Shown: one piece after another, positions 3,023 through 19,255 of the stretch
Numbering within the stretch: position 1 is the stretch's first letter
Layout of the letters: each line of letters opens with the position of its first letter
Assembly: GCA_001798855.1 (NCBI GenBank)
Contig: MGQQ01000144.1
Coordinates: 6,711-70,710 of the forward strand
Direction: 5' to 3'
From: Deltaproteobacteria bacterium RBG_16_49_23
GTDB taxonomy: Bacteria > Desulfobacterota > BSN033 > UBA1163
DNA: 64,000 nucleotides
The notes under the pieces: model-generated
Seen by the model: only the letters and a program-made list of their open reading frames with translations
The model's database searches: none
What the model was told of the DNA's origin: nothing
Translations under genes and position numbers: made by a program

Positions 3023-3118
3023 CGGGAAAGCTCACGCGGGGCATTAAACCCAGTGTTCGCTGAAAAAGGAACAGCCATCCTCCCCGCTTCGAGCCGCGGG
3101 GTTTTCTAACGGGGTAAA
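2991..3118. mobile_element. MITE-like element, family A copy 1 (divergent)
   Basis: Terminal inverted repeats TTTACCCCGTTAGAAA ... TTTCTAACGGGGTAAA with internal GCGGGG/CCCCGC hairpins. Related to the copies at 29063, 32577 and 45906. Confidence 0.7.
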
Positions 3119-3136
3119 GAGATCTTTATGAAGGGG

Positions 3137-4042
3137 TCATGGCAGTGGCGGAACCAATTCTTTTTTCAACTCCTTCACCATCTTCAGAAAGGCTTCGCTC
3201 GGAGGGGAGAGAGATTTTTCGCTGTGGTAGATGAGATCGGTAAAGAAAATGATATTCCCCTCTTCAAGGGAAATGACTTTTAAGGTTCCCTTCTCCAATT
3301 CCTCTTTGATGTCAGGCTCAAACATGAAGGAAACCCCTTTATTCTGCTTCACGTATCCCACTATAAAGTCCAAACTACTTGCCTCCATAATCACCGATGG
3401 CCAAATCCCATATTCCTGAAATTTTCTCAGAACGGCTGCTCTTGAACCGGATCCCTTCTCCCTCAAAATCACCGATTCACCATTCAGTTCTCTCAGAGAG
3501 ATACTCTTCCTCTGTGAGAACCTGTGTTCAGGTGAGGCAACCAGAACAAACTCTACTGTTGAGAAAAAGAGGGATTTGATTTTTCGATCCAGATTAAGCT
3601 GGGAGATAAGGGCTAATTCATTTTTCTTCTCGAGGACGCTCTTGGCCATATCCTCGGAATTCCCTTCATCTAAGATGACTTTGATACGCGGGTATCTTCT
3701 CTGAAACTCGGAGAGCAAGGAAGGCATGATGTAGCGGGCATAATTTTTCGTTGCTCCAATTTGAAGAGTCCCTCTCATCAATTTCTTGAAATCCCTCATC
3801 TTCTCGTTGGCATCAGATACAAGTTCGAAAATCTTCTCTGCATATTGGTAGAGAAGCTCTCCCGCTTCGGTTAACTGCATTCTTTTCCCAACTTGTTGAA
3901 TGAGTTTTAAATTCAATGATTTTTCAAAGGATTTGACCTGGATCGTCACAGCAGGTTGGGTGACATTTAATTCTTCCGCCGCCCGAGTAAAACTCTTTCT
4001 CTTGATAACTAAATAAAATGCTTCCAACTGTCTGAGATTCAA
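3137..4042 (-). CDS. LysR family transcriptional regulator
   Basis: N-terminal HTH MNLRQLEAFYLVIKRKSFTRAAEELNVTQPAVTIQVKSFE plus a substrate-binding domain of about 200 aa. Divergent from the 4374-15903 array. Confidence 0.9.
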   Translation of the reverse strand: MNLRQLEAFYLVIKRKSFTRAAEELNVTQPAVTIQVKSFEKSLNLKLIQQVGKRMQLTEAGELLYQYAEKIFELVSDANEKMRDFKKLMRGTLQIGATKNYARYIMPSLLSEFQRRYPRIKVILDEGNSEDMAKSVLEKKNELALISQLNLDRKIKSLFFSTVEFVLVASPEHRFSQRKSISLRELNGESVILREKGSGSRAAVLRKFQEYGIWPSVIMEASSLDFIVGYVKQNKGVSFMFEPDIKEELEKGTLKVISLEEGNIIFFTDLIYHSEKSLSPPSEAFLKMVKELKKELVPPLP

Positions 4043-4373: not shown

Positions 4374-5990
4374 ATGCCCCAATATGATGGCATTATCATT
4401 GGTGGTGGGCCAAACGGACTCACTTTAGGTTGCTACCTGGCCAAGGCAGGGCTCAAGATTCTTATTTTAGAGAAGAGATACGAAATGGGAGGAGGCCTCT
4501 GCTCAGAGATGATCACCATCCCAGGCTTCATCCACAATACCCATGCGATCTACCATCCCATGGTGGATTACGCTCCGGTCTTTGCAGATCTCCAATTAGA
4601 TCAAACCTACGATCTGAAATATATCCATCCCGAAGTCGTCATGGCTATGCCCTTCTTGGACGGTAGGAGTCTCTGTATCTACTCTGACGTGGAGAGGACA
4701 TGCTCATCCTTCGCCCAATTTTCAAAGAAAGACGCAGATGCCTATCGGGATACTTATAAACGGTTTAAGGGATATGTAGACGCATTTCTTGGACCCGCCA
4801 CTTACGATATGGCCAAACCAGCCATTGAACAGGTGATTAAACTCCACTCTAAACCATTAGGTCAAGAGATCAGTGTACTTTCTGAAAAAAAACCGATCGA
4901 TATCATCCATGGGATTTTTGAAAATAATCAAGTCAGAACATTGATGCTATATGTTACGTGTATGTGGGGATTGGATTATGACTTAGAAGGACTCGGGTAC
5001 CTCGTTCCCCTCATGGTCAATCGAGCCGCAAATTACAGGCTCTGTATGGGTGGCTCCCACCACATGGCCAATTTGATGTCAAAATTTCTCTACCGACACA
5101 GAGGGATGATTTTGGGGAGTCAGATCATCAAGAGAATTATTGTCGAAAACGGGACTGCAAAAGGCGTTGAATTAGACGATGGAACGGTTTATGAGGCAAC
5201 GAAATTTGTTGCCTCCAGCATCGATCCTTATCAAACCTTCCTGAAGTATATCGGAGAGAAGAACCTCTCAAAAGATTTTGTTACGCGGACAAAGGACTGG
5301 AAATGGGAAAAATGGTCCCTCTTTGATGTCCACCTTGCGCTTTTTAACGCACCCCAATTTGTTGCTGCCGCTTCGAACCCCGATCTGAATAAAGCCTTTA
5401 TTTATGTTCTCGGATTTGAGACGGAAGAGAATCTGATCGATCATTTTAAAGCCTTAAAAAATGGAGAGATCAAGCCATCCGGATTCAACTGCTGCTTCCC
5501 AACCGTTTTCGATCCCTCAGAAGCGCCTCCAGGGAGACACACCGGTTTAATATCAGAACATGCACCTTACCGTTTGAAGGAAGGGGGCCCCGAGAGATGG
5601 TATAAGATCCGTCAAGAACATGCCAAAGAGCTCATCGATAAGCTCAAAAAATATGCACCCAACATGAGTGAGGACAACATCCTCTGGACCTACATCGCCT
5701 CTCCCCTCGATATCGAAAACAAATTCGCGGATATGGTGGAGGGATCGATTAAACAGGGAGGTTACTACCCTCTTCAAATGGGATATCTCAGACCGAATGA
5801 ACTTTGTTCTCAATACGCAACGCCCATTAAAAATCTCTACCTTTGTGGCGCTTCCACTTTCCCTGGAGGCCTGGTCACCTATGGCGCAGGATATAATGCG
5901 GCCAATCGAATTGCTCAGGATCTCGCAATTAATAAGTGGTGGAAAGAACCTGAGATCGTGACGAAGGCAAAGGCAGAAGGTTTGTTATAG
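4374..5990 (+). CDS. FAD-dependent oxidoreductase, phytoene desaturase (CrtI/COG1233) family, paralog 1
   Basis: Dinucleotide-binding motif [44 protein letters not shown] Shine-Dalgarno sequence before the ATG at 4374. About 540 aa. Confidence 0.8.
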
Positions 5991-6000
5991 GAGGTCAAAG

Positions 6001-6237
6001 ATGAAAGTCAATTCGACAGGTTTGGGCCAGACAACGATGACTGCGGCCTTTACCCAGCTTCTCAAAGATCCGGATGGAGGGGACACCTTAAAATTGAAGA
6101 TCGAGTCTTCAGAACCCATCCATTGGGTGATTACAGCTACTCTGGAAGGAGCGGACCTGAGGAACTTCATCAAGCTCCTCATTAAACCCTCTATCCTCTA
6201 TTATGCCATTGCGTTGATGATGAAAAAAAAGAAATAG
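6001..6237 (+). CDS. small hypothetical protein (78 aa) between the two CrtI-family paralogs
   Basis: GGAGG Shine-Dalgarno sequence 6 nt upstream. Spacing is tight: 10 nt after the upstream stop and 16 nt before the next start. Hydrophobic, Lys-rich C-terminus. Confidence 0.5.
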   Translation: MKVNSTGLGQTTMTAAFTQLLKDPDGGDTLKLKIESSEPIHWVITATLEGADLRNFIKLLIKPSILYYAIALMMKKKK

Positions 6238-6253
6238 AAAAGGAGGAAACCCC

Positions 6254-7921
6254 ATGCCGGATACAAGTTATGATGCGATTGTTATTGGCGGAGGACACCA
6301 CGGGACGATCATTGCCTGCTATTTGCAACACGCAGGTCTCAAAACATTGGTCTGCGAACGTCAACATGAATTAGGGGGAGGTGCCTGCGGTGAAGAGCTT
6401 CCCCTACCCGGATTTATCCAGAATACATGCGCCCACTTCACCCGCGTCTGGACCCACCCAGTTTACACCGACTTCAATCTGAGGGAATATGGTCTAAAAT
6501 ATATCTTCCCGGAACAGAATGAAGGGATGGTTTATCCGGATGGAACCTGTTTTGTCGGTTACTCAGCCTGGAAGGTAATCGATCCTGTAACGGGAAAAGA
6601 AGAACTTTCGAATGAAAATGTGAAGAAGACCTATAACGAGATCGCCCGCTTCTCCAAAACGGATGCGGAGACCTACCTCGATATCCTCGGAAAATATCAG
6701 AGAAAGTGGAGGGCTGCTTTTCGGGAATATCGTTATAGTCCTCCCACGCCGTGGGGAGTCAAAAATGCCCTTGAAAAACTCTGCGGTGATCCTGTGGATG
6801 GAATTGATCCTGTTTATCAATTCATGACAGGCTCCCAGATCGCCAAAGACCTTTTTGAAAGCCCTGAACTCCAGTGCCTCTTTATGAGGGCCATCGAAAC
6901 CTCAACAGGCTGCTTCCCCGGCGATGTGATTGGCCTCTATGTTTTTGTCCATGTGATTGCCCTCACCCTTTCTTTTGAGTCTGTCTCCATTGTGATCGGT
7001 GGAACCCACACCATCACACATGCCCTCCAGAGGGCCTTCAGCGCCATGGGAGGGGAGTTCTGTGTGGAAACCGAAGTGGATAAAGTTCTTGTTGAGAATG
7101 GAAGAGCCAAAGGGGTCAAACTTTCGAATGGGATAGAGGTTGAAGCAAAACAGTTGGTGGTCAGTGATTTAGGGATCCCCCAGACTATCTTCAGGCTTTT
7201 AGGAGAAAATCATGTGACACCAAAGGTTGCACGGCGCATACGAAATATCCGGTATGACCGCAGCCAGATTTATTGGGGAAATATGGCCATGCACGAACTC
7301 CCCAAATATAAAGCGGTCTCCTTCAATCCAGATATAGGCAGTCAACCTCGACTCTACATGGGAGATAAAGACCCTGAATACCTCTCCTGGAAATACCAGG
7401 CGGACATCTTTACCAAGGGATTCCCTGAAAAGTGGTATATGCTCGCCGCCCCAGACTCCATCTGGGACAAGACCCGGGCGCCTGCGGGAAAACACACTAT
7501 TTTGGTTGAAGAATTCGCCCCCCCCCTTCACCTCTTTTCCGAGAGACAATGGCTCAAAATGAAGAAAGAGGTGGAAGATTTAATGTTGAAACAGTGGCAG
7601 ATCTATGCCCCCAATATGACCCGTGACAATGTCATTGAGGCCTTCATTACCACCCCCTATGATACAGTCATGCGAAACATCGACATGCTGGAAGGAGGTT
7701 GGGCCGAGGGGGCCATGTTTGCTTCCCAGGCCGACCGATTCAGACCCATTCCAGACCTCTCGGGCTATCGTCTTCCCTTTCTCAAAAATATGTATATCTG
7801 CTCTTCCAACATGCATTCCGGAGGCGGCATTGCTCGAGGCTCCAGTTACAATTGCTTCAAGGTCATTGCAGAAGACTTCAAGTTAGAGAAACTCTGGGAG
7901 ATAAAAGGAAGAGCTTATTAA
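6254..7921 (+). CDS. FAD-dependent oxidoreductase, phytoene desaturase (CrtI/COG1233) family, paralog 2
   Basis: YDAIVIGGGHHGTIIACYLQHAGLKTLVCERQHELGGG. It aligns by eye with paralog 1 along its length. AAGGAGG Shine-Dalgarno sequence. Confidence 0.8.
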   Translation: MPDTSYDAIVIGGGHHGTIIACYLQHAGLKTLVCERQHELGGGACGEELPLPGFIQNTCAHFTRVWTHPVYTDFNLREYGLKYIFPEQNEGMVYPDGTCFVGYSAWKVIDPVTGKEELSNENVKKTYNEIARFSKTDAETYLDILGKYQRKWRAAFREYRYSPPTPWGVKNALEKLCGDPVDGIDPVYQFMTGSQIAKDLFESPELQCLFMRAIETSTGCFPGDVIGLYVFVHVIALTLSFESVSIVIGGTHTITHALQRAFSAMGGEFCVETEVDKVLVENGRAKGVKLSNGIEVEAKQLVVSDLGIPQTIFRLLGENHVTPKVARRIRNIRYDRSQIYWGNMAMHELPKYKAVSFNPDIGSQPRLYMGDKDPEYLSWKYQADIFTKGFPEKWYMLAAPDSIWDKTRAPAGKHTILVEEFAPPLHLFSERQWLKMKKEVEDLMLKQWQIYAPNMTRDNVIEAFITTPYDTVMRNIDMLEGGWAEGAMFASQADRFRPIPDLSGYRLPFLKNMYICSSNMHSGGGIARGSSYNCFKVIAEDFKLEKLWEIKGRAY

Positions 7922-8057: not shown

Positions 8058-8810
8058 ATGAGACTCAAGGATAAAGTGGCCGTCGTCACAGGGGCTGCCA
8101 AGGGCCTGGGAAAAGAATTCTCTATCGGTATGGCAAAAGAGGGGGCCAAAATCATGGCTGTCACCCGCAGGGATCTCACCAACCTGGAGAAAACCGTTAA
8201 GGAGATTGAAGTCTTGGGCGGATTGGCGAAAGCTCTCCAGGCTGATGTCTCTATTGAAAAGGATGCGATCAAGATCGCCGAAGAAACATTTAAGTCCTTT
8301 GGCAGGATCGATATCTTAGTCAATTGTGCCGCTATCTACGACGGATTGGTTCGAAAATTTTTCACGGAGATAGATCCCAACGAATGGGATCAGGTGATGG
8401 CCGTGAACGTCAAAGGCCCCTGGCTATGCACAAGGGCTGTATTTCCTTATATGAAACAACAGGGAAAAGGAAAGATTGTCAATCTCTCTTCTGAAGTATT
8501 TTTTACGGGGTCCCATGGTTTGATCCACTATGTGTCCTCTAAGGGAGGGGTAATCGGGTTAACCCGGGCCCTTGCCATTGAATTAGGGCCATATAATATT
8601 AACATTAATACCGTTGCGCCAGGATTTACAGATACAGAGGCAAGTCGTCATCTCGCCGATGTGACTAAATACGATGTGAGTAAAACTCCTTTAAGACGAC
8701 TGGAACAACCCAATGATCTTCTCGGCGCTGTCATCTTCCTCGCATCCGATGAAAGCAATTTCATTACCGGGCAAACCATTTTAGTAGATGGTGGAAGGGC
8801 AATGCATTAG
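8058..8810 (+). CDS. short-chain dehydrogenase/reductase (FabG-like SDR)
   Basis: TGAAKGLG cofactor motif, NCAA motif and the catalytic S...YVSSK motif. 250 aa. Confidence 0.9.
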   Translation: MRLKDKVAVVTGAAKGLGKEFSIGMAKEGAKIMAVTRRDLTNLEKTVKEIEVLGGLAKALQADVSIEKDAIKIAEETFKSFGRIDILVNCAAIYDGLVRKFFTEIDPNEWDQVMAVNVKGPWLCTRAVFPYMKQQGKGKIVNLSSEVFFTGSHGLIHYVSSKGGVIGLTRALAIELGPYNININTVAPGFTDTEASRHLADVTKYDVSKTPLRRLEQPNDLLGAVIFLASDESNFITGQTILVDGGRAMH

Positions 8811-8985: not shown

Positions 8986-11631
8986 ATGCACGAGATTAAT
9001 TTTACTCTAAACGGTATTCCAAAAAAGGTGATCGCTGATCCCCGGAAAAGCTTACTCAAAGTGATTCGGGAGGATCTCGGGCTAACCGGAACGAAAGAAG
9101 GGTGTTCAGCAGGACACTGCGGTACCTGTGCTGTGATCATGGATGGTGAAGTCGTCCTCGCCTGTAGGGTCCCTGTGGCTAAAACCCAGGGCAAAGAGAT
9201 CACGACCATAGAGGGTATCGGCACCCTCAAAAATCCTCATCCCCTTCAATTAGCCTTTGCAAAAACAGGAGCCATCCAGTGCGGCTTCTGTACACCAGGG
9301 ATGATCGTTCGGGCTAAGTCCATTTTGGACAAAAATCTTGATCCCTCAAGAGACGAAATAAGGAGGGCTCTTCAACCCCATATCTGCCGTTGTACCGGTT
9401 ATCAAAAGATCTTTGAGGGGATTGAACTGGCAGCCTCGTATCTACGGGGAAAAACAAAATCCATCGAATTAAAACTGACCGGGAAAGGGACGGTTGGCCA
9501 ACCTGTCACCCGACCGGACGCACTCGAAAAGGCTACAGGAACAACCCTCTACGCCGCTGACCTCGCTGTGGACGGATGTGCTCACATCAAGGTTTTAAGA
9601 AGCCCTCATCACCACGCTAAAATCGTTCATATTGAGAAGGCAGAAGCGGAAGCGATTCCTGGAGTCCTCGCTGTGCTCACTGCCGAGGATGTGAAAGGAA
9701 CAAATATTTTGAAGATGGCCGGTGATGACCAACCCATCTTATGTGGAAATAAAGTTCGCTTTATTGGAGACCCCGTGGCTGCTGTTGTGGCGAACTCTGA
9801 GGAAATAGCCTCTTACGCCATCGAGAAGATTGAAGTCACTTATGAACCCTTAGAATCAGTCCTCACTCCTGAGGAAGCATTGAAGGAAGGCGCCATAAAG
9901 GTCCACGATGATCGATCCAATCTCTTTTTCGAACAACCCATTATCCATGGTGATATGAAGAAGGGTCTTTCAGAGTCGGAGGTGGTGGTTGAGAAAACCT
10001 ACACAACGCAATCCGTTGAACATGCCTATCTCGAGAACGATGCCGGCGTTGCCTATCTCCATGAGAATGGGCAATTGATCATTATGTCTGCAAGCCAGAA
10101 CATCCATGCCCACCGAAAAACCATTGCAGAGGGTTTGGGCCTCAGTCTGGACAAAGTACGGGTCATTCAAACCCCTACAGGAGGAGCGTTTGGAGGAAAA
10201 TTAGATGTCTCCGTAGGTGGAATTCTCGGTTTGACTGCTCTAAAACTGAAAAGGCCGGTGAAGCTTGTCTATACGAGGAGCGAAACCTTTGCAGTTACCC
10301 CGAAACGCCACCCCTTCTTGATGAAGGTGAAAGTGGGGGCCAAAAAAGATGGAACCTTGATGGCATTGGATTTTGATCTCACGGCAGATGGTGGGGCCTA
10401 TAAATCATTCAGCAACAGTGTGACGCAGCGAGGCATTATCCATTCCCAGGGACCCTATCGCTTTCCGAATGCACATGCTTATGGAAAAGCAGTTTATACC
10501 AATACAGCTTTCAAGGGAGCCATGAGAGGCTTTGGCGCACCCCAGGTTGCTTTTGCGATCGAGTCGATTCTCGATGAGCTGGCTATTGAATTAAAAATGG
10601 ACCCCTTAGCCCTCAGGATGGAAAACGGCTTTGTGAAAGGAGATACGACGATCTGTGGCCAAGTGTTAGATCACGCAATCGGATTCCAAGAATGTATGGA
10701 GACTCTAAAACCTTTTTATGAGAAAGCGCTCAAACAAGCCAAAGCAAACATCACCAATGAAATCAAACAGGGTGTTGGTTTAGGAGGGGTTTGGTTCGGT
10801 CCAGGGCGGAGCGCCCCAGATCAATCTGAGGCGTGGGCAGAACTTCTTCCTGATGATACCTTACAGATTTGGATCGCAGCATCGGATATGGGACAGGGGA
10901 CAAATACGATGTTCTGGCAGATCGCTGCAGAGACCATGGGATTTCCATTGGAAAAGGTCAAAGTCTTTACGACCGACACGGAGATCACACCGGATGGGAA
11001 CTTTTCCGCCGGGAGCCGTCAGACCTATGTATCAGGAAGAGCTGTACAGATGGCTGTGGCAGAATTGAAAAGAGCCATGGAGGAAAAAGGGGTAAAGACA
11101 TACAGCGAGATGAAGGTGAAAGGTTTACCTACTCTTTATAAAGCAATCAATAAGCCTGTAACATCAAGGCCTGATCCCAAGACCGGTCAAGGTGTGCCAT
11201 GGGAAACCTATTCCTTTGGAATCCAGATGGCTGAAGTATCCGTCGAGATAAAGACAGGCAAGGTCACTGTCCTCAAGATCACCTCCGTCCATGACCTTGG
11301 AACAGTGATCAATATCCAAAATGTGGAGGGCCAGCTCCATGGTGGCATCTATATGGGGCTCGGATATGCCCTCATGGAAGAGTTTGTGTATACGAAGACC
11401 GATAGCTTCGCTAAATTTAAAGTCCCGAGAGCCAAAGACATGCCAGAGATGGAAGTGATCACTCTCAATATTCCAAGAGAAAAAGGACCCTTTGGAGCTT
11501 CGGGTACTGCCGAATATGCGGATGTCCCCACGGCACCAGCCATCGCTAATGCTATCTATAATGCATGCGGTGTTCGTATTCGAGATTTACCCATTACTCC
11601 AGAAAAGATCATTAAGCTTTGCAAACTTTAA
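8986..11631 (+). CDS. molybdopterin-dependent aldehyde oxidoreductase-like protein with fused N-terminal 2x[2Fe-2S] domains (xanthine dehydrogenase family, MOP-type architecture)
   Basis: CSAGHCGTCAV...C (plant-type 2Fe-2S), then QCGFCTPGM...CRCTGYQKI (second 2Fe-2S), then an a/b-hammerhead and molybdopterin-binding region of about 700 aa. No FAD domain or FAD subunit gene nearby. Confidence 0.85.
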   Translation: MHEINFTLNGIPKKVIADPRKSLLKVIREDLGLTGTKEGCSAGHCGTCAVIMDGEVVLACRVPVAKTQGKEITTIEGIGTLKNPHPLQLAFAKTGAIQCGFCTPGMIVRAKSILDKNLDPSRDEIRRALQPHICRCTGYQKIFEGIELAASYLRGKTKSIELKLTGKGTVGQPVTRPDALEKATGTTLYAADLAVDGCAHIKVLRSPHHHAKIVHIEKAEAEAIPGVLAVLTAEDVKGTNILKMAGDDQPILCGNKVRFIGDPVAAVVANSEEIASYAIEKIEVTYEPLESVLTPEEALKEGAIKVHDDRSNLFFEQPIIHGDMKKGLSESEVVVEKTYTTQSVEHAYLENDAGVAYLHENGQLIIMSASQNIHAHRKTIAEGLGLSLDKVRVIQTPTGGAFGGKLDVSVGGILGLTALKLKRPVKLVYTRSETFAVTPKRHPFLMKVKVGAKKDGTLMALDFDLTADGGAYKSFSNSVTQRGIIHSQGPYRFPNAHAYGKAVYTNTAFKGAMRGFGAPQVAFAIESILDELAIELKMDPLALRMENGFVKGDTTICGQVLDHAIGFQECMETLKPFYEKALKQAKANITNEIKQGVGLGGVWFGPGRSAPDQSEAWAELLPDDTLQIWIAASDMGQGTNTMFWQIAAETMGFPLEKVKVFTTDTEITPDGNFSAGSRQTYVSGRAVQMAVAELKRAMEEKGVKTYSEMKVKGLPTLYKAINKPVTSRPDPKTGQGVPWETYSFGIQMAEVSVEIKTGKVTVLKITSVHDLGTVINIQNVEGQLHGGIYMGLGYALMEEFVYTKTDSFAKFKVPRAKDMPEMEVITLNIPREKGPFGASGTAEYADVPTAPAIANAIYNACGVRIRDLPITPEKIIKLCKL

Positions 11632-11830: not shown

Positions 11831-13516
11831 ATGAAATTTTATGATGTGGTCCCCGGACTTGATTTTATGGAGGAGTACGATTTAGAACAATCACCTGCTT
11901 GGTTTCTCGATGCCACCCACTCTGTGCCCCCATGGACGCCTATGTTCGGATGGTTTTGGATCAATTTCTGTCGGCATGGAATGCAGTATGGCGCTGAAAC
12001 CCTCTCCCTTCCCACGGTGAAAGGATGGGACTGGCGTTTTAAAGATGGGGGTGGATATCTAACCCTTCTCATGGTCACCTCCGACCAGGAGAAAGCAGAA
12101 AGGGAGAAGAAGTTTAGAGAAGCGATCCGTCCCTTCGTAGAAAACTATGATGGTCTTTGGGGTGGATATGTTAAGGAAATACTGAAAAGATATGAGAGTT
12201 TAAAGGCCCTTGATGTCAATACTGCGTCGAATATCAAACTTCTTGAGAACTTCGAGGAGACAATCGATACCTGTCGAAGGATGTGGGAAATCCATATGCA
12301 CATGATGTATGGGACTTATACACCCTACGTCCTCTTTGAGCAACTCTGTATGCAGTTGTTGAAAATCGATGACACCCATCCTACTTTTCATAAATTAGTG
12401 GCCGGTTTTGACAATGAAAGTTTTCGAGTGGACCGCAGGCTCTGGGAGTTCTCAAAAAAGGCTAAGGATATGGGGCTCGAAAGTCTCTTTATGGAGACAC
12501 CCTCAAAGCAGATGAAGACTAAATTAGGAGAGAGTGATAAAGGAAAGAAATTTTTGAAGGAGTTCGACGAATTCCTTGAAAAGGAAGCAGGCTGGAGGAT
12601 GGAGCGAATGGCTGAGATCAATGTCCCCACCTGGCAGGAGGACCCAACGCCCGGTTTCGAAACGGTAAAAATGTACCTAAAGAAAGGTGGGGAATTCGAC
12701 TTAGACCAGGACCGTAAGAAGATTGAAAAGGAACGGAAAGATACAGAAAAAGAGGTCTTGGCCAAGATTGCTCCCGAACAAAAGAGCTGGTTCTCCATGT
12801 TGATGAAGGTGGCTCAAAATTGCAGCCGCTTCAGTGAGGAGCACAACCATTATCTCGATCTTTACACCCATGCCTTGATGAGAAGATCCTGTATGGGATT
12901 GGGAAATCGATTCGCCAAATGCGGAGCGATCAGTCAACCTGATGATATTTTCTTCCTCATGCCCGATGAGGTGAGAAAGGCTGGGATTAATCCGGACAAA
13001 CTCAATCTCAAACCCATTGCCCAGCGTCGACGGAAAGAATGGGAAGGATGGAACCAGAGGGACAATCCTCCTGCCATCTTTAAAGAGGGGTTTACTTTGG
13101 AAATGGCGATTGGAGGATTGGTCCAATCTCTTGATCCCATCGCCCTTAAGGTGGTGGTGGGAAGCATGCCTGTGCCAAAACCTGAACTCAAGGCAGACCT
13201 CTTGGGGACGTGCGGCTCTTCAGGTGTGGCAGAAGGAATTGCTCGGGTTGTCCTTAGGGATGAAGACTTACCAAACATTCAAAAAGGAGATATCCTTGTT
13301 GCGATGAGCACCTCTCCTGCCTGGACGCCCGTATTCAGTATGATCAATGGGGTTGTGGTGGATCGAGGGGCGAGCCTCTCCCATGCCGCTATTGTGGGTA
13401 GGGAGTATGGCATCCCTGTGGTCATGAATGTTTTTACGGGAACTCAAGCAATCAAGTCCGGCCAAAGGATTCGTGTCGACGGCAATCTGGGGGCCGTTTA
13501 TATTCTGGATAAATAG
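11831..13516 (+). CDS. PEP-utilising enzyme mobile (His-swivel) domain protein, phenylphosphate synthase alpha-like
   Basis: C-terminal GSSGVAEGIARVV...GDILVAMSTSPAWTPVF...VVDRGASLSHAAIVGREYGIPVV carries the phospho-His motif. The N-terminal domain of about 430 aa is of unknown function. GGAGGTG Shine-Dalgarno sequence. Confidence 0.8.
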   Translation: MKFYDVVPGLDFMEEYDLEQSPAWFLDATHSVPPWTPMFGWFWINFCRHGMQYGAETLSLPTVKGWDWRFKDGGGYLTLLMVTSDQEKAEREKKFREAIRPFVENYDGLWGGYVKEILKRYESLKALDVNTASNIKLLENFEETIDTCRRMWEIHMHMMYGTYTPYVLFEQLCMQLLKIDDTHPTFHKLVAGFDNESFRVDRRLWEFSKKAKDMGLESLFMETPSKQMKTKLGESDKGKKFLKEFDEFLEKEAGWRMERMAEINVPTWQEDPTPGFETVKMYLKKGGEFDLDQDRKKIEKERKDTEKEVLAKIAPEQKSWFSMLMKVAQNCSRFSEEHNHYLDLYTHALMRRSCMGLGNRFAKCGAISQPDDIFFLMPDEVRKAGINPDKLNLKPIAQRRRKEWEGWNQRDNPPAIFKEGFTLEMAIGGLVQSLDPIALKVVVGSMPVPKPELKADLLGTCGSSGVAEGIARVVLRDEDLPNIQKGDILVAMSTSPAWTPVFSMINGVVVDRGASLSHAAIVGREYGIPVVMNVFTGTQAIKSGQRIRVDGNLGAVYILDK

Positions 13517-13517
13517 A

Positions 13518-14570
13518 ATGCCTCAAAAACGAAACAAATTTATCATCTGGTTTAAGGATTGTTCAGGAAAAGATATACCACGGGTCGGTGGGAAAAATGC
13601 CAATCTTGGAGAAATGTTAAAAATGGATCTAAGGGTCCCTCCGGGATTCGCAGTGACCACCCAGGCATTCGATGCCTTTTTGGATAAAGGGAGGGTTCGA
13701 AACCAGATCGTGAGGACCCTCCCTCAACTCCAATTCGATGACATCAAAGCCCTGGAGAAAGCGGGACGCCAGATTCGGGACCTCATTGAATCAACTCCGA
13801 TTCCAAAAAAGATTGTAGAAGAGATTAAAGAAGCCTATAGAGAATTAGCCAACCTCTGCAGGGTCCCGGATCTTCCCGTTGCTGTTCGGTCCAGTGCCAC
13901 CTCCGAAGATCTGAAGACAGCCAGTTTCGCCGGGCAGCATGAATCCTATCTCTGGATCAGGGGCGGCGAGGAAGTAGTCCGCCATATATTGAAATGCTGG
14001 GCAAGCCTGTTTACGGATCGCGCCATTGCCTACCGGAACCAGGTCGGATGGCCTCACGACAAAGTCACCATCAGCGTTGGTGTTCAGAAAATGGTCAAAG
14101 CGAAATGTGCCGGAGTCATGTTTACCATAGATCCGGTCATCGGAGATGAGAGTAAGATTGTGGTGGAAGGCAATTGGGGATTAGGCGAAAGTGTGGTCAA
14201 AGGAGAGGTTTCTCCTGATCACTTCATTGTGGATAAGCAATCCTCTGAGATTTTAGAGAAGACCGTCGCTTTTAAATTACTCTGCTATCAGCTGGAGGGA
14301 AATAAGGTGGTTTGCTCACCCCCCTCCTCTGAAAAACAAAATCAGCTCTGCTTAAGTGACGAGGAGTTAGTCGAAATCGTTCGGTTGGGTAAAATCTCAG
14401 AGGCCCATTACCAATCCGCTCAGGATCTCGAGTGGGCCATCGATATCGACCTCCCCTTCCCTGAGAACGTTTTTCTCGTTCAGACCCGCCCCGTCACGAG
14501 TTCAGGGAAACCCAAGAGAAGCGATGCCGATGTCATCATCGATATGATGTCTTCGCTTTTCAGAAGGTAA
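13518..14570 (+). CDS. PEP/pyruvate-binding (PPDK_N ATP-grasp) domain protein, phenylphosphate synthase beta-like
   Basis: VGGKNANLGEMLK...VAVRSSATSEDL...SFAGQHESYL is typical of the PEP synthase N-terminal nucleotide-binding domain. The ATG at 13518 follows the upstream TAG by 1 nt. Confidence 0.8.
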   Translation: MPQKRNKFIIWFKDCSGKDIPRVGGKNANLGEMLKMDLRVPPGFAVTTQAFDAFLDKGRVRNQIVRTLPQLQFDDIKALEKAGRQIRDLIESTPIPKKIVEEIKEAYRELANLCRVPDLPVAVRSSATSEDLKTASFAGQHESYLWIRGGEEVVRHILKCWASLFTDRAIAYRNQVGWPHDKVTISVGVQKMVKAKCAGVMFTIDPVIGDESKIVVEGNWGLGESVVKGEVSPDHFIVDKQSSEILEKTVAFKLLCYQLEGNKVVCSPPSSEKQNQLCLSDEELVEIVRLGKISEAHYQSAQDLEWAIDIDLPFPENVFLVQTRPVTSSGKPKRSDADVIIDMMSSLFRR

Positions 14571-14604
14571 GTGGGTGGCCCATGTATCGACGATGGGAGG
14601 AAAG

Positions 14605-15264
14605 ATGATTTTCTTATTCAATCAACACTGGGATATTATCCCGGGGAAAGAGGAAGAATACACAAAATTTGCTATCAATCACCATATCCCGACCCTGAAA
14701 AAGATAGGAATTAATCTTGTCGGTGGATTCCATGTGGTCATCGGAGAAGGACCCCGGATCATAGCGGTGGGAGCAGTCGATTCCTTCCAAAAGCTCCAGA
14801 AGGCCTTGGAGTCTGAAGAGTATGAATCCGTAACAGCCCAGATGAAACAATATGTTCTCAATTATTGTTGCCGGATTCTTAAGCCAACGGGGCGGGTAAA
14901 AATAACAAAATATAGTATTCAATTACGGGTATGGAAATTTAACCAATATTTTAATATCCTTCCTGGAAAAGAGAAGGAATACTCGGAGTTTATCATCAAA
15001 GATCATCTTCCGACCATGGAAAAACAGGGCATTAAAATGACTGGAGGCTGGCAAGTCGTGGTAGGAGCCGGCCCTTCGATTGTGGCAGAGGGGACAGCAG
15101 GTAGTCTAACCGAGATTGCGAAAGCCATTGATAGCGATGAGTATAGACGAATCACAAATATTCTTACCTCGACCTATGTGACTGATTACAGTAGCCGTAT
15201 TCTGGCTCCCACAGGGCGTATCGAACTCCCTTATATATTGAATAGAATGATGAGAGGGTTTTAA
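14605..15264 (+). CDS. tandem-duplicated domain protein of unknown function (2 x about 105 aa)
   Basis: GGAGG Shine-Dalgarno sequence before the ATG at 14605. The two halves align: F.QHWDIIPGKEEEYTKF..HHIPTLKK.GI.LVGGFHVVIGEGPRI vs F.QYFNILPGKEKEYSEF..DHLPTMEKQGIKMTGGWQVVVGAGPSI. Both halves end in RIL.PTGR. Confidence 0.7.
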   Translation: MIFLFNQHWDIIPGKEEEYTKFAINHHIPTLKKIGINLVGGFHVVIGEGPRIIAVGAVDSFQKLQKALESEEYESVTAQMKQYVLNYCCRILKPTGRVKITKYSIQLRVWKFNQYFNILPGKEKEYSEFIIKDHLPTMEKQGIKMTGGWQVVVGAGPSIVAEGTAGSLTEIAKAIDSDEYRRITNILTSTYVTDYSSRILAPTGRIELPYILNRMMRGF

Positions 15265-15280
15265 AGAGGTTTGAGGTTTG

Positions 15281-15320
15281 AATTGAAAATTGATAACTGA
15301 CAATTGGTCATTGATCATTT
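15281..15320. repeat. CAATGATCA/ATTGG-rich intergenic repeat (family E)
   Basis: AATTGAAAATTGATAACTGACAATTGGTCATTGATCATT. Confidence 0.5.
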
Positions 15321-15903
15321 CCAGCCAGTGGTGATAAAACCGATCCATCAGAAAATTTTTGAAAAGGCTAAACCCTTCCTCCGAACCCGAAAGAATCTCA
15401 TTCACACTCGGGTCGCGCTCCGGTTTGCTTTAAAGCTTCTCCAACACGAAACGAGTGATGAAGAGGTTGTTATCCCTGCGATTCTTCTCCACGATGTGGG
15501 GTGGAATGCCGTCCCAAAAAACTTACATCTCACTGCTTTTGGTCCAAATCCATCCAATCCTGAGTTGACAAGGGTTCATGAAGTGGAAGGGGCAAAGATA
15601 ACCAAACACATTTTGGAAGCGGTGCACTATCCTCCTAAAAAAGTGGAGGAGATCTGTCGGATCATACGGGGTCATGATTCGAGAAAAAGACCCATCTCGT
15701 TCAATGACCGGATCGTTAAAGATGCGGATAAACTTTGGCGATATTCTCGAAAAGGTGTGGCTATTGAAACGGACCGGTTTAATATTTCACGTCAAGAATT
15801 TCTCACCTACTTGGAAGGGAAGATAGACCAATGGTTCCTAACGGCTACGGCCAAAAAGATGGCGAGACAGGAGATCTCTGAGAGAAACAATCCCTTGCCC
15901 TAA
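15304..15903 (+). CDS. HD domain phosphohydrolase
   Basis: Motifs LLHDVGW, RGHD and KDADKL. The start is uncertain because no ATG is available; the candidates are TTG at 15304 or GTG at 15329. Confidence 0.7.
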   Translation: MVIDHFQPVVIKPIHQKIFEKAKPFLRTRKNLIHTRVALRFALKLLQHETSDEEVVIPAILLHDVGWNAVPKNLHLTAFGPNPSNPELTRVHEVEGAKITKHILEAVHYPPKKVEEICRIIRGHDSRKRPISFNDRIVKDADKLWRYSRKGVAIETDRFNISRQEFLTYLEGKIDQWFLTATAKKMARQEISERNNPLP

Positions 15904-16081: not shown

Positions 16082-17893
16082 TTGATCCTTTTGGTTTTCG
16101 TAAGTTTCTCTCTTTTTCTTATTTTCCCACGCGCGATTTCCTCTCAGGCTCCATCGCATGAGAAGATCATTCTGAGAGGTTTCGATGGCATCCCTCTCAC
16201 TCTGGAAAGCAAGTCTCCGTATAGCCCCAAAAAGACCTGTGGCGCTTGCCACGATTATCAACGAATTACTAGTGGGTACCACTTCCAGCAGGGGCGGGCC
16301 GATGGGACCGGCAAAATTATTGTAAGCGATACCTACGATGAGAAATACCCCTGGAGCCTCTCTTCGGGATTATTTGGGAAGCATTCACCTGCCTCCCCGG
16401 ATTCGAGTCAGTTGACTCGAAAAGTAAACCGGAATTTCTCCGAAATGGATAAATCCTCTTTCCACTTTGTCCAGAACTGTGGGGCCTGCCATCCGGGAGG
16501 AGGATGGGGAGAGTTCGACCGTAAAGGAAATCCCTACTACACCGAGGAAACGAAAAAATTCGGCTATGAACTATCCGGGGACGATCCAGTCGTCGATGGA
16601 GATTATACCCCCTTCAGTGCGGGCGATGAGAAATATGGAGCTCCCTGGGACCGCAGTGGTGGGAGTGAGGCGGACTGCCTCATCTGTCACCTCAAAGGAT
16701 ATCATTGGAAAGAACGTGGGGAAGTCTTCAGAGGAAGATTCTTCAAGCATGGACCGACTGTGGGAGCGGGGTGGGCCACGGTCAAACTCTCACCGGAGGA
16801 AGAGAGGAATCCTAAAGCCGTTCTGGTGGATATCGACTATACAAAAAAAGAGGCGGCTGACTGTGAAAATCTCCATCTTCAGATCGTGAGGCGTCCCTCT
16901 GATGAAAACTGCTGGTCCTGTCATGCCATCTATGGTGAAAGAAAAAGGGGGTATGACTGGAATCTCGAAGCGGATATTCACAAAGCCAAAGGCATGGATT
17001 GTGTCTCATGCCATCCGGGAGACAAAGAACATAATTTTGCCAAAGGAAATTCCCTCCAACAAACGGTCAGGGATGATCTTGACAATACCATGAACTCCTG
17101 TGAAGACTGCCATTACAAAAGAAAAGACAGAAGAGCGCCGAGGTTCAAACACCCTTACTCTCCCAAGCATATGAGGAGAATCGCCTGTCAGACCTGCCAC
17201 CTGCCTTACCGATCCGTGGTGGCAGAGCTTGTCTATGATCATACCAACGGAGACACCCAGATCCACGAGACGTCAAAATTTCTATCCCCCGACCCTCTGG
17301 ATCCAAAACCGTCTCACGCCAGGGAAAGAACGGAGATCTGGTATCCTGCTCTCAAGGAATTCAAAGGAAAGATTATTCCCGTGAAATCTGCCATTGCAAT
17401 CTACTGGGGAGATATGGATGAAAAGGCCAATGTGGTCAGGCCCATCCCGCACTGGAAGATCAGGGAATTTAAAAAACCTTCCCTTAAAGACGATGATGGA
17501 GATGGAATCCCCGAGGTCAATTCTCTCGATGAGATCAGATCCTTTCTCATCGCCCTTCGGGGAAAAGATCGCTTCGGGAATCCGATCGCAAACTTGCCGG
17601 TCTTGATCAAAGGAGGGTTTCTCTACCGTCTGGATAAAAAAGGGGGGGTGGAAAAAATCCTGCATGACCAGGCGCAGTCCATCGATTTCTCCCTCAACCA
17701 TAACGTGCGGTCCGGCTCCCTGGCCATTGGTTTCAGGGGATGCAAAGACTGCCATTCCAAGAAATCCCCTTTCTTTTTAAGGAAAGTCCTTATCGATCCA
17801 TACGATGAGAAAGGAAGACCTGTTTATGTTGAAGCATGGGAACAAATGGGAATTGATAAAGAGAAGCTGGACCGAATATTGATGGAACAGTAA
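16082..17893 (+). CDS. octaheme c-type cytochrome, exported
   Basis: Eight CxxCH motifs: CGACH x2, CLICH, CWSCH, CVSCH, CEDCH, CQTCH and CKDCH. Hydrophobic N-terminal signal LLVFVSFSLFLIFPRAISSQA. TTG start assumed. Confidence 0.85.
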   Translation: MILLVFVSFSLFLIFPRAISSQAPSHEKIILRGFDGIPLTLESKSPYSPKKTCGACHDYQRITSGYHFQQGRADGTGKIIVSDTYDEKYPWSLSSGLFGKHSPASPDSSQLTRKVNRNFSEMDKSSFHFVQNCGACHPGGGWGEFDRKGNPYYTEETKKFGYELSGDDPVVDGDYTPFSAGDEKYGAPWDRSGGSEADCLICHLKGYHWKERGEVFRGRFFKHGPTVGAGWATVKLSPEEERNPKAVLVDIDYTKKEAADCENLHLQIVRRPSDENCWSCHAIYGERKRGYDWNLEADIHKAKGMDCVSCHPGDKEHNFAKGNSLQQTVRDDLDNTMNSCEDCHYKRKDRRAPRFKHPYSPKHMRRIACQTCHLPYRSVVAELVYDHTNGDTQIHETSKFLSPDPLDPKPSHARERTEIWYPALKEFKGKIIPVKSAIAIYWGDMDEKANVVRPIPHWKIREFKKPSLKDDDGDGIPEVNSLDEIRSFLIALRGKDRFGNPIANLPVLIKGGFLYRLDKKGGVEKILHDQAQSIDFSLNHNVRSGSLAIGFRGCKDCHSKKSPFFLRKVLIDPYDEKGRPVYVEAWEQMGIDKEKLDRILMEQ

Positions 17894-17896
17894 ATG

Positions 17897-19255
17897 TTAA
17901 GGCTGAGGTGTAGTGGAAAATATCCTCTGAAAGACATCGGAATGGTGTTGGAGGATATTGCCGGAGCGGCTCCGCCAGAATTGATAGTTGTGTTCGGAAT
18001 TCCCATTGAAGGGCTGAATAGGTATTTGATGGCTTCTCTCACTTAAGGCCTTCTCAAAATTTTGATTTCCTTCCGTAATCCAAGAAAACCCCTCCTTTTT
18101 GCCATAGTCGAAATAGATCGAGTGGGGCAACGGCGTGATTCCCAGTTGTCTCAGAAGATCAATCGGATTGTTCTCCCGAAGTTGCTTCAGGTCAATGGAG
18201 GAATAAGAAGGAATATTTTTTGTTTCCAGCCTTCCGAAGACTTCCAGAAATTCTGGCAGGACCATTTTGATCATCCACTTGTTCTTCAATAACCCGATAT
18301 CAAGAAGCCCGCTCTGGCTGCTGACGGACTGAAAAAGATGGGGATACTTCAAACCCAGCTTGATTGCTCCGAATCCACCGATTGAAATCCCCCCTATCCC
18401 TCTTCTTTGAAGAAATTTCTCCCGGTAGAGAGACCGGTCATGAAGATACTGCACCAGCTCCAAAAAATAGGATTCGTATCTTCCCAGTGCGCCTGGCTTC
18501 ATGGAAAAAAAGGGGAGGAGGGAATAGTTAAATGCCTCACCCTGTTCGAAATCATCACAGCCTTTTCGATTCTGTGTTGCAGGGAAAAGAGTCTTCCCTT
18601 CATTCTCATCCGTATAAAATCCATTGTCCCCATCCGGAAGAACAAGAACCATTTTTTGTATGGAGTGGAAAAGACCCTCCGGATTTTTCCCGGCAGCAAG
18701 ATTTTCGGAGACGATCGAGCGGGCAATCTCCCGTGGGTGATAATCCTCTTTCGCAAGACCGCCATGTTTTAAGAGCTCTTCAAATCGCTCTCCCAGGGAC
18801 CTCTCCAGATCCCGATAGGTACGGTTATTAAAATCCATCAATGCATAAGCGATGACCGCAATATCCTGATGGAGGAGCCAATGATATTCCTCTTCCTTAA
18901 CTTCACATAACACTCTCCTCGCCTTTTCCGGAGATCGCACCTTCCACCACCTCCCCGTTCGATGAAAATTATATCCGTGGAGAAGGTAGAGGACCGGGTA
19001 TCTGACTTTAGGGTTTTTATAAAAGTCTTCCGGAAGGATGATAAAGAATCCCTTCTCTTTTCCCAGGGAGGTCGAAAAAAAGGTCTCATATCGAACCAAG
19101 TAGTGAAACTTCTGGGATGGTTTCGGATTGAGAAGATAAGAAATCTCCAGGTCATCCGGACAACAGGGATGAGAGGCGCCAAAGGTTTTAAGCGAACCAA
19201 TCAATATTAACAGTATAGAGGAAAGAATTATCCAAAATCGCTTTCGGCGGTTCAT
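17897..19255 (-). CDS. alpha/beta hydrolase, putative esterase family
   Basis: Signal anchor, then YPVLYLLHGY and the nucleophile elbow GIGGISIGGFGA. Convergent with the cytochrome gene, 3 nt apart. Confidence 0.7.
   Translation of the reverse strand: MNRRKRFWIILSSILLILIGSLKTFGASHPCCPDDLEISYLLNPKPSQKFHYLVRYETFFSTSLGKEKGFFIILPEDFYKNPKVRYPVLYLLHGYNFHRTGRWWKVRSPEKARRVLCEVKEEEYHWLLHQDIAVIAYALMDFNNRTYRDLERSLGERFEELLKHGGLAKEDYHPREIARSIVSENLAAGKNPEGLFHSIQKMVLVLPDGDNGFYTDENEGKTLFPATQNRKGCDDFEQGEAFNYSLLPFFSMKPGALGRYESYFLELVQYLHDRSLYREKFLQRRGIGGISIGGFGAIKLGLKYPHLFQSVSSQSGLLDIGLLKNKWMIKMVLPEFLEVFGRLETKNIPSYSSIDLKQLRENNPIDLLRQLGITPLPHSIYFDYGKKEGFSWITEGNQNFEKALSERSHQIPIQPFNGNSEHNYQFWRSRSGNILQHHSDVFQRIFSTTPQP

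Follow-up and report, generated by a model that had tools for sequence, protein, structure and literature searches.

Dikinases for small molecules which consist of two separate proteins, one with the ATP-grasp fold and one with a swivel domain and an acceptor-binding domain, were set apart as a subfamily not long ago (HpeHI, 2022-2025), with only three known classes of substrate. The two-component class as such and the strategy of carrying a transient phosphate group through a pathway are known already. In C. glutamicum, the Cre cluster encodes, besides CreHI, by which 4-cresol is phosphorylated, a cytochrome P450 (P450) system (CreJEF), an alcohol dehydrogenase (CreG), an aldehyde dehydrogenase (CreC) and a phosphohydrolase (CreD; PMC7764795, PMC12167813). 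The Hpe pathway carboxylates the phospho-ester before the phosphate is split off (PMC9618137). CreHI and HpeHI function with two components only, an acceptor domain like that of rifampin phosphotransferase (RPH) has been reported for HpeH, and the crystal structure of HpeI is available as entry 9GOJ of the PDB (PMC12167813). Here a three-gene dikinase module is described from a stretch of 64 kb of Deltaproteobacteria bacterium RBG_16_49_23 (contig MGQQ01000144.1, positions 6,711 to 70,710), in the following called the window, together with the operon in which it is embedded and with related loci in other genomes and metagenomes.

Open reading frames (ORFs) of the window were taken from an ORF table and domains were assigned with Pfam and NCBIfam. 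The three genes of the module encode proteins of 561, 350 and 219 amino acids (aa; Table 1). They lie where an earlier note, made from the letters of this stretch, had placed them, and the motifs quoted there were found again, namely GASLSHAAIVGREYGIPVV in the 561-aa swivel protein and VGGKNANLGEM in the ATP-grasp protein. The ATG of the ATP-grasp gene follows 1 nucleotide (nt) after the TAG of the swivel gene, as had been noted, although the product has 350 residues and not 351; the sequence GGGAGGA precedes the third gene. Pfam PPDK_N covers residues 21-337 of the 350-aa protein (E 2e-109) with no second domain, in line with its description as an ATP-grasp domain only. The phospho-His swivel domain of the first protein was matched by Pfam PEP-utilizers at residues 483-554 (E 1e-21). 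A phosphoenolpyruvate (PEP)/pyruvate TIM barrel (Pfam PEP-utilizers_C), the absence of which had been claimed, was found neither in the three proteins nor in the other scanned ORFs of the window.

The N-terminal part of the swivel protein, about 430 aa, had been regarded as an unknown domain. This view has to be revised, since the region is homologous to the acceptor (rifampin)-binding domain of RPH and to the N-terminal portions of PpsA and CreH; as judged from several comparisons, it is an acceptor-binding domain of the RPH/PpsA type. The NCBIfam group PRK08296 ("hypothetical protein", ~600 aa) aligns to residues ~17-560, and the NCBIfam models for RPH, PigC/RedH and PRK06241 cover residues 114-560, all of them below their cut-offs. 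With phmmer, residues 223-560 could be aligned with residues 550-867 of RPH (5fbs), i.e., well past the swivel domain, and the Pfam tag precomputed for the homologues in the source databases is Rph_4th. When an AlphaFold2 (AF2) model of the protein was submitted to Foldseek, RPH was the sole solved structure matched over ~580 columns (E 1e-15), the other matches being confined to the swivel domain. His518, which forms part of an LSH motif, is conserved together with S517 without exception in 20 homologues, and the pair lines up with the MSH motif of PpsA. For the swivel protein, a first search yielded 1,848 homologues, mostly at ~67% identity, from Desulfobacterota and other groups; some homologues carry the automatic name "Chondramide synthase".

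For comparison with phenylphosphate synthase, PpsABC, the phenol cluster on plasmid pAZKH of Azoarcus sp. KH32C served as stand-in (PEP-utilizing enzyme, PEP/pyruvate-binding protein, CBS protein, then ppcBDAG); CreH and CreI were represented by the proteins at the cre positions of Rhodococcus plasmid clusters. The ATP-grasp protein of the window is 49% identical to the syntenic PpsB and 39% identical to the CreI homologues, and it aligned with 9GOJ at E 5e-65. The swivel protein aligned end to end with the syntenic PpsA, at 26% identity. Thus, the features of the class are present: a separate ATP-grasp polypeptide, a C-terminal swivel domain with its histidine, an RPH-like acceptor domain and no TIM barrel. 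Domain content, the full-length homology to PpsA, the identity to PpsB, the invariant His518 and the match to 9GOJ together argue that the pair belongs to the two-component small-molecule dikinases (PpsAB, CreHI, HpeHI). The proposal of the earlier note, a split dikinase of the phenylphosphate-synthase/RPH type which lacks the TIM barrel and for which no acceptor was named, is supported by domains and homology alike.

The best PDB sequence matches of the ATP-grasp protein are PEP synthases (9dae, 8a8e), and its best curated matches are PEP synthase models, over their N-terminal part only; such matches would also be expected if the genes were fragments of a disrupted PEP synthase or pyruvate phosphate dikinase. 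This explanation is refuted by conservation and domain content and retains hardly any probability: no TIM barrel is present nearby, the N-terminal 430 aa of the swivel protein are of RPH type and have no counterpart in PEP synthase, and the split is intact in >140 loci, with >1,800 homologues. The earlier note had likewise not regarded the module as a broken pps gene.

The module shares with PpsABC of Thauera and Aromatoleum the same split, the order swivel-grasp and a third gene for ~220 aa directly downstream, and split, order and size of the third gene were also seen in Azoarcus KH32C, so far as the earlier note had claimed a likeness. The close relationship to phenylphosphate synthase which this seemed to imply did not hold, in view of the 26% identity of the swivel protein. 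Among themselves, members of the swivel family are 63-83% identical, and 25-27% identical to both the PpsA and the CreH homologues, whereas PpsA and the CreH homologue share 43% identity. On the NCBIfam model NF006152 (cut-off 723), the syntenic PpsA scored 1300 bits and the swivel protein of the window 157.7 bits; its best score on any PRK08296 model was 242.5 bits (cut-offs >= 578), and it failed model NF006150, on which the CreH homologue scored 1159 bits. A phylogeny, as had been proposed, was constructed in the form of rough neighbour-joining (NJ) trees with the syntenic stand-ins for PpsA and CreH; the swivel family formed its own tight clade, apart from the clade of PpsA, CreH and Haladaptatus and from the Thermomicrobium and Bacillus lineages. 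Homologues of PpcA, PpcB and PpcD were detected neither in the window nor in 145 related loci (1.85 Mb); ppc genes are linked only in PpsABC, the third protein of which is a CBS protein, different from that of the window. The low identity to PpsA, the missed NCBIfam cut-offs and the lack of carboxylase genes in the 145 loci indicate that the pair is a separate, deep-branching subfamily, distinct from phenylphosphate synthase. A genuine phenylphosphate synthase, feeding a phenylphosphate carboxylase, would agree with the split, the gene order and the identity of the ATP-grasp protein to PpsB, and also with carriers such as Syntrophorhabdus-like bacteria and other aromatic-degrading Desulfobacterota; with no more than 242 bits against 1300 for PpsA on its own model, and with linked genes for enzymes of side-chain oxidation, it is, however, very improbable and can be considered as largely refuted.

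RPH unites the three functional domains of the pair in one fused polypeptide and works by the same swivel mechanism; it shares ~17% identity and occurs in the context of antibiotic resistance. CreHI (4-methylbenzyl phosphate synthase) has the same two-component make-up of a swivel/acceptor protein and an ATP-grasp protein, although the swivel protein is only 26-27% identical and the order in cre clusters is grasp then swivel, in the window swivel then grasp. HpeHI of Rhodococcus rhodochrous GD02 also has two components with an RPH-like acceptor domain, and a phosphatase which acts downstream of the side-chain modification (PMC9618137, PMC12167813); there, the side chain is carboxylated by a biotin enzyme and the phosphatase is of the NagD type, whereas the operon of the window would provide side-chain oxidation and a candidate HD phosphatase.

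Table 1. Features of the dikinase operon in the window (positions refer to the 64-kb stretch)
Feature	Position	Strand	Basis
LysR-type regulator, divergent	3137..4042	-	Pfam HTH_1 and LysR_substrate; same position in many Desulfobacterota loci
FAD_A, CtmA/delta24-SD-like flavoprotein, 538 aa from ATG	4374..5990	+	covalent-flavin motif
Small conserved ORF between the flavoprotein genes, 78 aa	6001..6237	+	ORF listing
FAD_B, CtmB/delta24-SD-like flavoprotein, 555 aa	6254..7921	+	CrtO/phytoene-desaturase-family matches; in nearly all loci
Short-chain dehydrogenase/reductase (SDR), candidate alcohol dehydrogenase (CreG-like)	8058..8810	+	Pfam adh_short
Molybdenum (Mo) aldehyde oxidoreductase, fused 2Fe-2S and Mo-binding, MOP type	8986..11631	+	Pfam Fer2, Fer2_2, Ald_Xan_dh_C, MoCoBD_1/2
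Swivel/acceptor-binding dikinase subunit (predicted), 561 aa	11831..13516	+	Pfam, NCBIfam, phmmer, Foldseek
ATP-grasp (nucleotide-binding) dikinase subunit (predicted), 350 aa	13518..14570	+	Pfam PPDK_N only
Predicted tandem ferredoxin-like (ABM/NIPSNAP-type) protein, 219 aa	14605..15264	+	Pfam NIPSNAP, AF2, Foldseek
HD-domain phosphohydrolase, candidate dephosphorylating enzyme (CreD-like), 	15304..15903	+	Pfam HD
Multihaem cytochrome c, 603 aa	16082..17893	+	Pfam cytochrome c7/c3/c554

The genomic context was drawn from the loci of the homologues. Species-representative genomes were scanned with an alignment of the 219-aa family, which gave 60 loci (designated here by L numbers, as are the others), and metagenome contigs were scanned with an alignment of the swivel family, which avoided ascertainment by way of the third gene and gave 80 contigs. 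Since the same composition recurs in these 60 genome loci and 80 metagenome contigs, the arrangement of the genes is far beyond chance. Swivel, ATP-grasp and 219-aa genes are adjacent, in this order, in nearly every genome locus with a contig of sufficient length; exceptions are L039, where the order is inverted, and L063 and L064, where only a fragment of the third gene is present. Co-occurrence was counted in those swivel-ascertained contigs which had enough room for the gene in question. The ATP-grasp gene was present in 64 of 64, the 219-aa gene in 49 of 52, the SDR gene in 31 of the 33 with room upstream and the HD gene in 28 of 41; a gene for a 106-aa ABM protein was found in 34 of 52 metagenome contigs. 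Recurrent neighbours are the divergent LysR gene, two flavoprotein genes with a small ORF, the SDR gene, a gene for an aldehyde-oxidising enzyme and the HD gene, often also the ABM gene and a UPF0261 gene. Carriers belong to the Syntrophaceae, Desulfomonilaceae, Syntrophobacteraceae, Desulfobacterales, Deferrisomatales and Syntrophorhabdus, and further to Anaeromyxobacter, Sterolibacterium, Alphaproteobacteria, Actinomycetota and a spirochaete; a cultured carrier of the operon is Georgfuchsia toluolica G5G6 (L004). The genomes of the clade originated from peat, soil, groundwater and lake sediment.

The operon context, which had been missed in the earlier note, suggests a function. In Cre clusters, too, the dikinase genes are accompanied by genes for an SDR, an HD phosphohydrolase and an aldehyde-oxidising enzyme. 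The Cre steps run from phosphorylation through oxidation of the side chain to removal of the phosphate. A tblastn search with the HD protein of the window against 72,556 plasmids gave matches in two Rhodococcus plasmids only, both of which carry cre-type clusters: the creD-position gene was matched in R. oxybenzonivorans and R. ruber alike, and in R. ruber a further HD gene adjoining the cluster was matched as well. Identities to these Rhodococcus HD genes were 32-38%, as compared with 39% to the Georgfuchsia member of the window protein's own cluster family. The SDRs of the clusters are 44-51% identical to the SDRs at the creG position of Rhodococcus; the values for HD and SDR alike are no lower than those between remote members of the window's own cluster family. 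The NAD-dependent aldehyde dehydrogenase (Aldedh) of Georgfuchsia is 38% identical to the product of the creC-position gene. In the two Rhodococcus plasmid loci (L067, L068) the gene order is P450, grasp, swivel, SDR, ferredoxin (Fdx), ferredoxin reductase (FdR), HD and Aldedh, which is collinear with creJ-I-H-G-F-E-D-C of C. glutamicum (gene table in PMC7764795). P450, Fdx and FdR genes were found neither in the window nor in the 145 related loci; where the Cre pathway has P450, ferredoxin and reductase, the operon of the window has CtmAB-type flavoproteins. Further differences are the Mo enzyme in place of the Aldedh CreC, the additional tandem ferredoxin-like protein, and the carriers, which for the window type are mostly strict anaerobes. 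Four or five of the Cre functions would thus be present as homologues or analogues, and the O2-dependent step appears to be replaced by an O2-independent type of enzyme.

The candidates for this replacement are the two flavoproteins. CtmAB limonene dehydrogenase and the steroid delta24-desaturase are heterodimeric flavoenzymes which oxidise allylic methyl groups without O2, and the consensus of their covalent-flavin motif is G-F-L/R-X-N/S-T/L-H-A (PMC11061730). FAD_A contains GFIHNTHA (4524-4547), which fits this consensus except for Ile at the third position. FAD_B has GFIQNTCA (6410-6433), with Cys in place of the flavinylated His, and may therefore have a cysteinyl flavin link or no covalent flavin; the corresponding motif in FAD_B of Georgfuchsia ends with NPHA. 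FAD_A and FAD_B are ~28% identical to each other and belong to the CrtI/CrtO superfamily, their best curated match being the carotenoid ketolase CrtO. As in CtmAB and delta24-SD, there are two paralogous subunits of ~540-555 aa; this likeness is drawn from the published motif and subunit features, and it is limited by the Cys for His in FAD_B and by the proteobacterial loci, which have the FAD_B type only. In Georgfuchsia, the flavoprotein gene is followed by genes for electron-transfer flavoprotein (ETF) alpha and beta and for an ETF-oxidising Fe-S protein, which fits a dehydrogenase that feeds the respiratory chain. The 78-aa protein encoded between the flavoprotein genes could be a third subunit or an anchor of the flavoenzyme; it is 90% identical to the product of an L001 gene (6902-7132), which gave no match in Pfam, and it was found in 34 of 69 sequences compared. 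The aldehyde-oxidising enzyme varies with the locus: a Mo enzyme in the window, with molybdopterin-dependent aldehyde oxidoreductase as best NCBIfam match, a tungsten aldehyde:ferredoxin oxidoreductase (AFOR) in L001, L003 and L018, and the NAD-dependent Aldedh in Georgfuchsia. Downstream of the HD gene, the 603-aa cytochrome c is a possible electron outlet; its homologues, 72-82% identical, are found downstream in L001, L002, L005 and several metagenome contigs.

Since Cre functions are present and flavoproteins take the place of the O2-dependent P450 step, the dikinase is considered, with slightly more confidence than doubt, to provide the activation step in a conserved catabolic operon which works without oxygen and has a logic similar to that of Cre. 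By analogy with PpsAB, HpeHI and RPH, ATP would be bound by the ATP-grasp protein, and His518 of the swivel protein would take the beta-phosphate, with release of AMP and Pi. With the swivel domain, the phosphate would then reach the RPH-like acceptor-binding domain, which is part of the same polypeptide, and there it would be moved onto a hydroxyl group of a small substrate. The CtmAB-type flavoproteins (4374-7921), in the role of CreJEF, would hydroxylate or dehydrogenate the phospho-intermediate at a methyl or alkyl side chain, the SDR would oxidise the alcohol and the Mo aldehyde oxidoreductase the aldehyde, and the HD phosphohydrolase would finally strip off the phosphate. Domain content, homologies, synteny and co-occurrence were observed, whereas the AMP-forming stoichiometry, the sequence of the steps, the nature of the substrate and the part played by the 219-aa protein are inferred. 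As acceptor, a cresol or alkylphenol may tentatively be named, with a 4-cresol-like alkylphenol as the leading guess; hints at aromatic compounds are a sigma-54 activator with XylR_N/V4R domains in Georgfuchsia toluolica and a PaaK-like CoA ligase in L018.

Several observations weigh against this reading, either in its general form or with respect to the acceptor. HD proteins and SDRs form large families, and identities of 32-51% are no proof of the same substrates; the aldehyde-oxidising enzyme of the window is not homologous to CreC. In some loci (L016, L018, L023) the three genes of the module have neither flavoprotein nor SDR genes in their vicinity. For the 561-aa protein, the AF2 model reached only a moderate predicted local distance difference test (pLDDT) value of 65, and no description of the cluster was found in the literature by full-text searches. 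With a swivel protein ~26% identical to PpsA and CreH, homology does not allow a phenolic acceptor to be deduced, and the characterised enzymes of the CtmAB family act on allylic methyl groups of isoprenoids and not on benzylic ones.

The last point leads to a pathway for isoprenoid or terpenoid alcohols, in which the dikinase would act on an aliphatic hydroxyl group, as RPH does, and the flavoproteins would convert an allylic methyl group into the acid. This would be in accordance with limonene dehydrogenase and delta24-desaturase, to which the characterised relatives of the flavoproteins are confined, with the best curated match of both flavoproteins, CrtO, with the occurrence of the cluster in a Sterolibacterium metagenome-assembled genome (MAG; L019), and with the swivel protein being equally distant from PpsA and CreH and from lineages without known specificity. 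On the other hand, recognisable relatives of the HD protein and the SDR occur in cre-type alkylphenol clusters, the regulator of the XylR/V4R type and the PaaK-like ligase suggest aromatic compounds, and the ATP-dependent 25-hydroxysteroid kinase of Sterolibacterium yields mainly ADP and is hence a different enzyme. A terpenoid pathway is therefore regarded as rather unlikely. For the same reason, namely the formation of mainly ADP, and since no gene of dikinase type was named for it, the Sterolibacterium kinase was rejected as a known member of the group. The "Magic" cluster of ORM2 for benzene activation (PMC13101534) was also rejected, its GlcDEF-like flavoprotein, CoA transferases and BamQ being unrelated to the operon.

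Activation of a carbonyl oxygen, by which a ketone or aldehyde would be converted into an enol phosphate in the manner of PigC/RedH or PEP synthase, appears improbable. The NCBIfam models for PigC and RedH match both proteins over long stretches, PEP synthase phosphorylates an enolate, and aldehyde-handling enzymes are always linked; yet the scores are far under the PigC/RedH cut-offs, the HD protein and the Cre-like SDR would fit a phosphate ester which is stable through several steps, and no condensing partner or carboxylase is linked in the related loci.

The third protein of the module is an internal duplication and not a CBS protein, as the earlier note had recognised: its halves are 45% identical (E 1e-35), Pfam gave no match to CBS domains, and there is no similarity to the syntenic CBS protein of PpsC type. 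Pfam NIPSNAP matched the first half with 28.8 bits (cut-off 22.3 bits). The AF2 model (pLDDT 89.5) shows two beta-alpha-beta-beta-alpha-alpha-beta units which form a pseudo-dimeric alpha+beta barrel, and Foldseek matched it, at TM scores of ~0.6, with the tandem ABM "putative monooxygenases" 3f44, 3mcs and 2pgc (E 4e-11 to 1e-8) and with HemQ/Cld (coproheme decarboxylase, chlorite dismutase), and furthermore with the NIPSNAP structure 1vqy. A profile of the family gave nothing significant against PDB sequences, and fold comparison alone was informative. According to the model, the protein is thus a tandem ferredoxin-like member of the ABM/NIPSNAP superfamily. Both repeats contain an invariant PTGR motif and invariant His, Asp, Tyr and Arg residues. 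A first search found 470 homologues, and an exhaustive search found 174 cluster representatives among 1.8 billion.

That the 219-aa protein is functionally tied to the dikinase, and to its swivel subunit in particular, is supported by the strict linkage: between L001 and the window, the swivel proteins are 83% and the 219-aa proteins 80% identical, the ATP-grasp proteins only 45%, and the 219-aa gene lies between the swivel and ATP-grasp genes in L127 and L145 and directly after the swivel gene in L131. The protein may be a binding or transfer partner for the phospho-intermediate, the catalyst of a step that needs no cofactor, or a stimulator of the kinase. Phosphorylated small molecules can be substrates of cofactor-independent ABM-fold proteins, an example being LsrG, the phospho-AI-2 isomerase, which may serve as a lead.

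The size and position of the third gene do resemble those of ppsC, as had been pointed out (ppsC of Azoarcus KH32C encodes 222 aa and also follows the ATP-grasp gene), and the module may be looked upon as a three-subunit dikinase like PpsABC, in which the 219-aa protein functionally replaces the CBS-type stimulating protein PpsC. The linkage in 49 of 52 independently ascertained contigs would agree with such a subunit, and the invariant Arg, Tyr, His and Asp of both repeats could form a binding site. The subunit role is, however, unproven and in part contradicted. CreHI and HpeHI manage with two components (PMC12167813), the ABM gene separates the ATP-grasp and 219-aa genes in most close relatives, L092, L118 and L122 have no 219-aa gene, paralogues of 206 and 214 aa are located among redox genes (L003, L044, L049, L053 and elsewhere), and seven related loci encode a PpsC-like CBS protein in addition. 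A replacement of PpsC is therefore held to be unlikely, if not strongly so.

Some details of these loci may be added. In L092, L118 and L122 the HD gene is situated directly after the ATP-grasp or ABM gene. The paralogues in L003 (6779-7399 and 7448-8092) are tandem ferredoxin-like proteins, 35% and 26% identical to the 219-aa protein, and are encoded between the SDR and AFOR genes; they also occur in L037, L043, L044, L049, L053 and L054. The PpsC-like gene with a CBS pair (36% identity over the full length) is present in L029, L042, L147, L032, L035, L056 and L061, just upstream of the LysR gene (692-1321 in L029, 131-760 in L042, 515-1144 in L147); in L029 and L147 it is preceded by a gene with a product that looks, by eye, UPF0261-like at its C terminus. 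The window has no counterpart of the CBS gene at 3022-3137, though the UPF0261 gene is present. In the closest relatives, the ABM gene lies between the ATP-grasp and 219-aa genes (L005-L014, at 9663-9980); the window is without the 106-aa ABM gene, with only 34 nt (14571-14604) between the two genes, and L075 has lost it likewise.

The ATP-grasp subunit appears to have had a history of its own. Between the clade of the window and the other loci of the family, the ATP-grasp proteins are 43-47% identical and the swivel proteins of the same loci 83%, from which it seems that the ATP-grasp gene was exchanged for one of a different lineage in the clade of the window. The rough NJ trees assigned this gene to no particular source lineage.

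What appears to be new is this subfamily, its obligatory ferredoxin-like companion and the pairing with CtmAB-type flavoproteins in strict anaerobes, no literature description having been met with in the full-text search. If the reading as an oxygen-independent operon with Cre-like logic is true, the strategy of a transient phosphate, known from the Cre and Hpe pathways of aerobes, would extend to strict anaerobes, and it would be joined with water-dependent flavin hydroxylases, the known range of which is very narrow (limonene and a steroid). An additional anaerobic route for phenolic or terpenoid compounds in the carbon cycle could then be assumed, and new oxygen-free biocatalysts might be obtained, i.e., a kinase, a C-H hydroxylase and a phosphatase. 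In its most specific form, the proposal would be that strict anaerobes (Syntrophaceae, Desulfomonilaceae, Syntrophorhabdus-like bacteria and others) and some Proteobacteria and Actinomycetota possess an oxygen-independent route for methyl- or alkylphenols, with phosphorylation by a dikinase as its first step, water-using hydroxylation of the phosphate ester's side chain by flavoproteins of CtmAB type, and the tandem ferredoxin-like protein as a novel sort of partner which would bind or process the phospho-intermediate on behalf of the swivel subunit; this is put forward as a possibility that is still more doubtful than probable. It would represent a third anaerobic strategy for 4-cresol, beside p-cresol methylhydroxylase and fumarate addition. 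With Georgfuchsia toluolica as cultured carrier, the question is directly testable.

Other observations concern the surroundings of the module. In the divergent intergenic region that separates the genes for the LysR regulator and FAD_A, the minus strand has a perfect sigma-70 consensus (12/12; TTGACA, spacer of 18 nt, TATAAT) at 4301-4272; scans for promoters and terminators showed no enrichment over shuffled sequences. The cytochrome gene is followed by a convergent gene for a 452-aa protein of an esterase family (16082-19255 for both), and the two are kept only in close relatives of the window. The rest of the 64-kb window outside the operon consists of unrelated housekeeping genes. A UPF0261 (Tm-1-like) gene, located at 1721-3022 (+) in the window, recurs near the cluster in many loci, and in L016, L018, L048 and L050 the swivel gene comes immediately after it; no TIM-barrel partner resembling PEP hydrolase was seen beside the gene of the window. 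In L018, a Deltaproteobacteria MAG, the three dikinase genes are surrounded (13-2403, 13730-15280) by genes for a Mo-bis-pyranopterin guanine dinucleotide (Mo-bisPGD) oxidoreductase, a HAD hydrolase and a CoA ligase of the PaaK type; the Mo enzyme could represent a different oxygen-independent oxidising system.

A plasmid of Thermomicrobium roseum (L149, 1092-9802) carries another deep-branching two-component dikinase, with 27% identity. A 205-aa hypothetical protein encoded there was considered as a relative of the 219-aa protein and rejected; by eye, it has an HD-like motif. The other neighbours are an ABM protein, an FAD-binding protein, an FAH protein and a Mo enzyme of the xanthine dehydrogenase family, so that in an unrelated phylum the mix of functions resembles that of the operon in the window.

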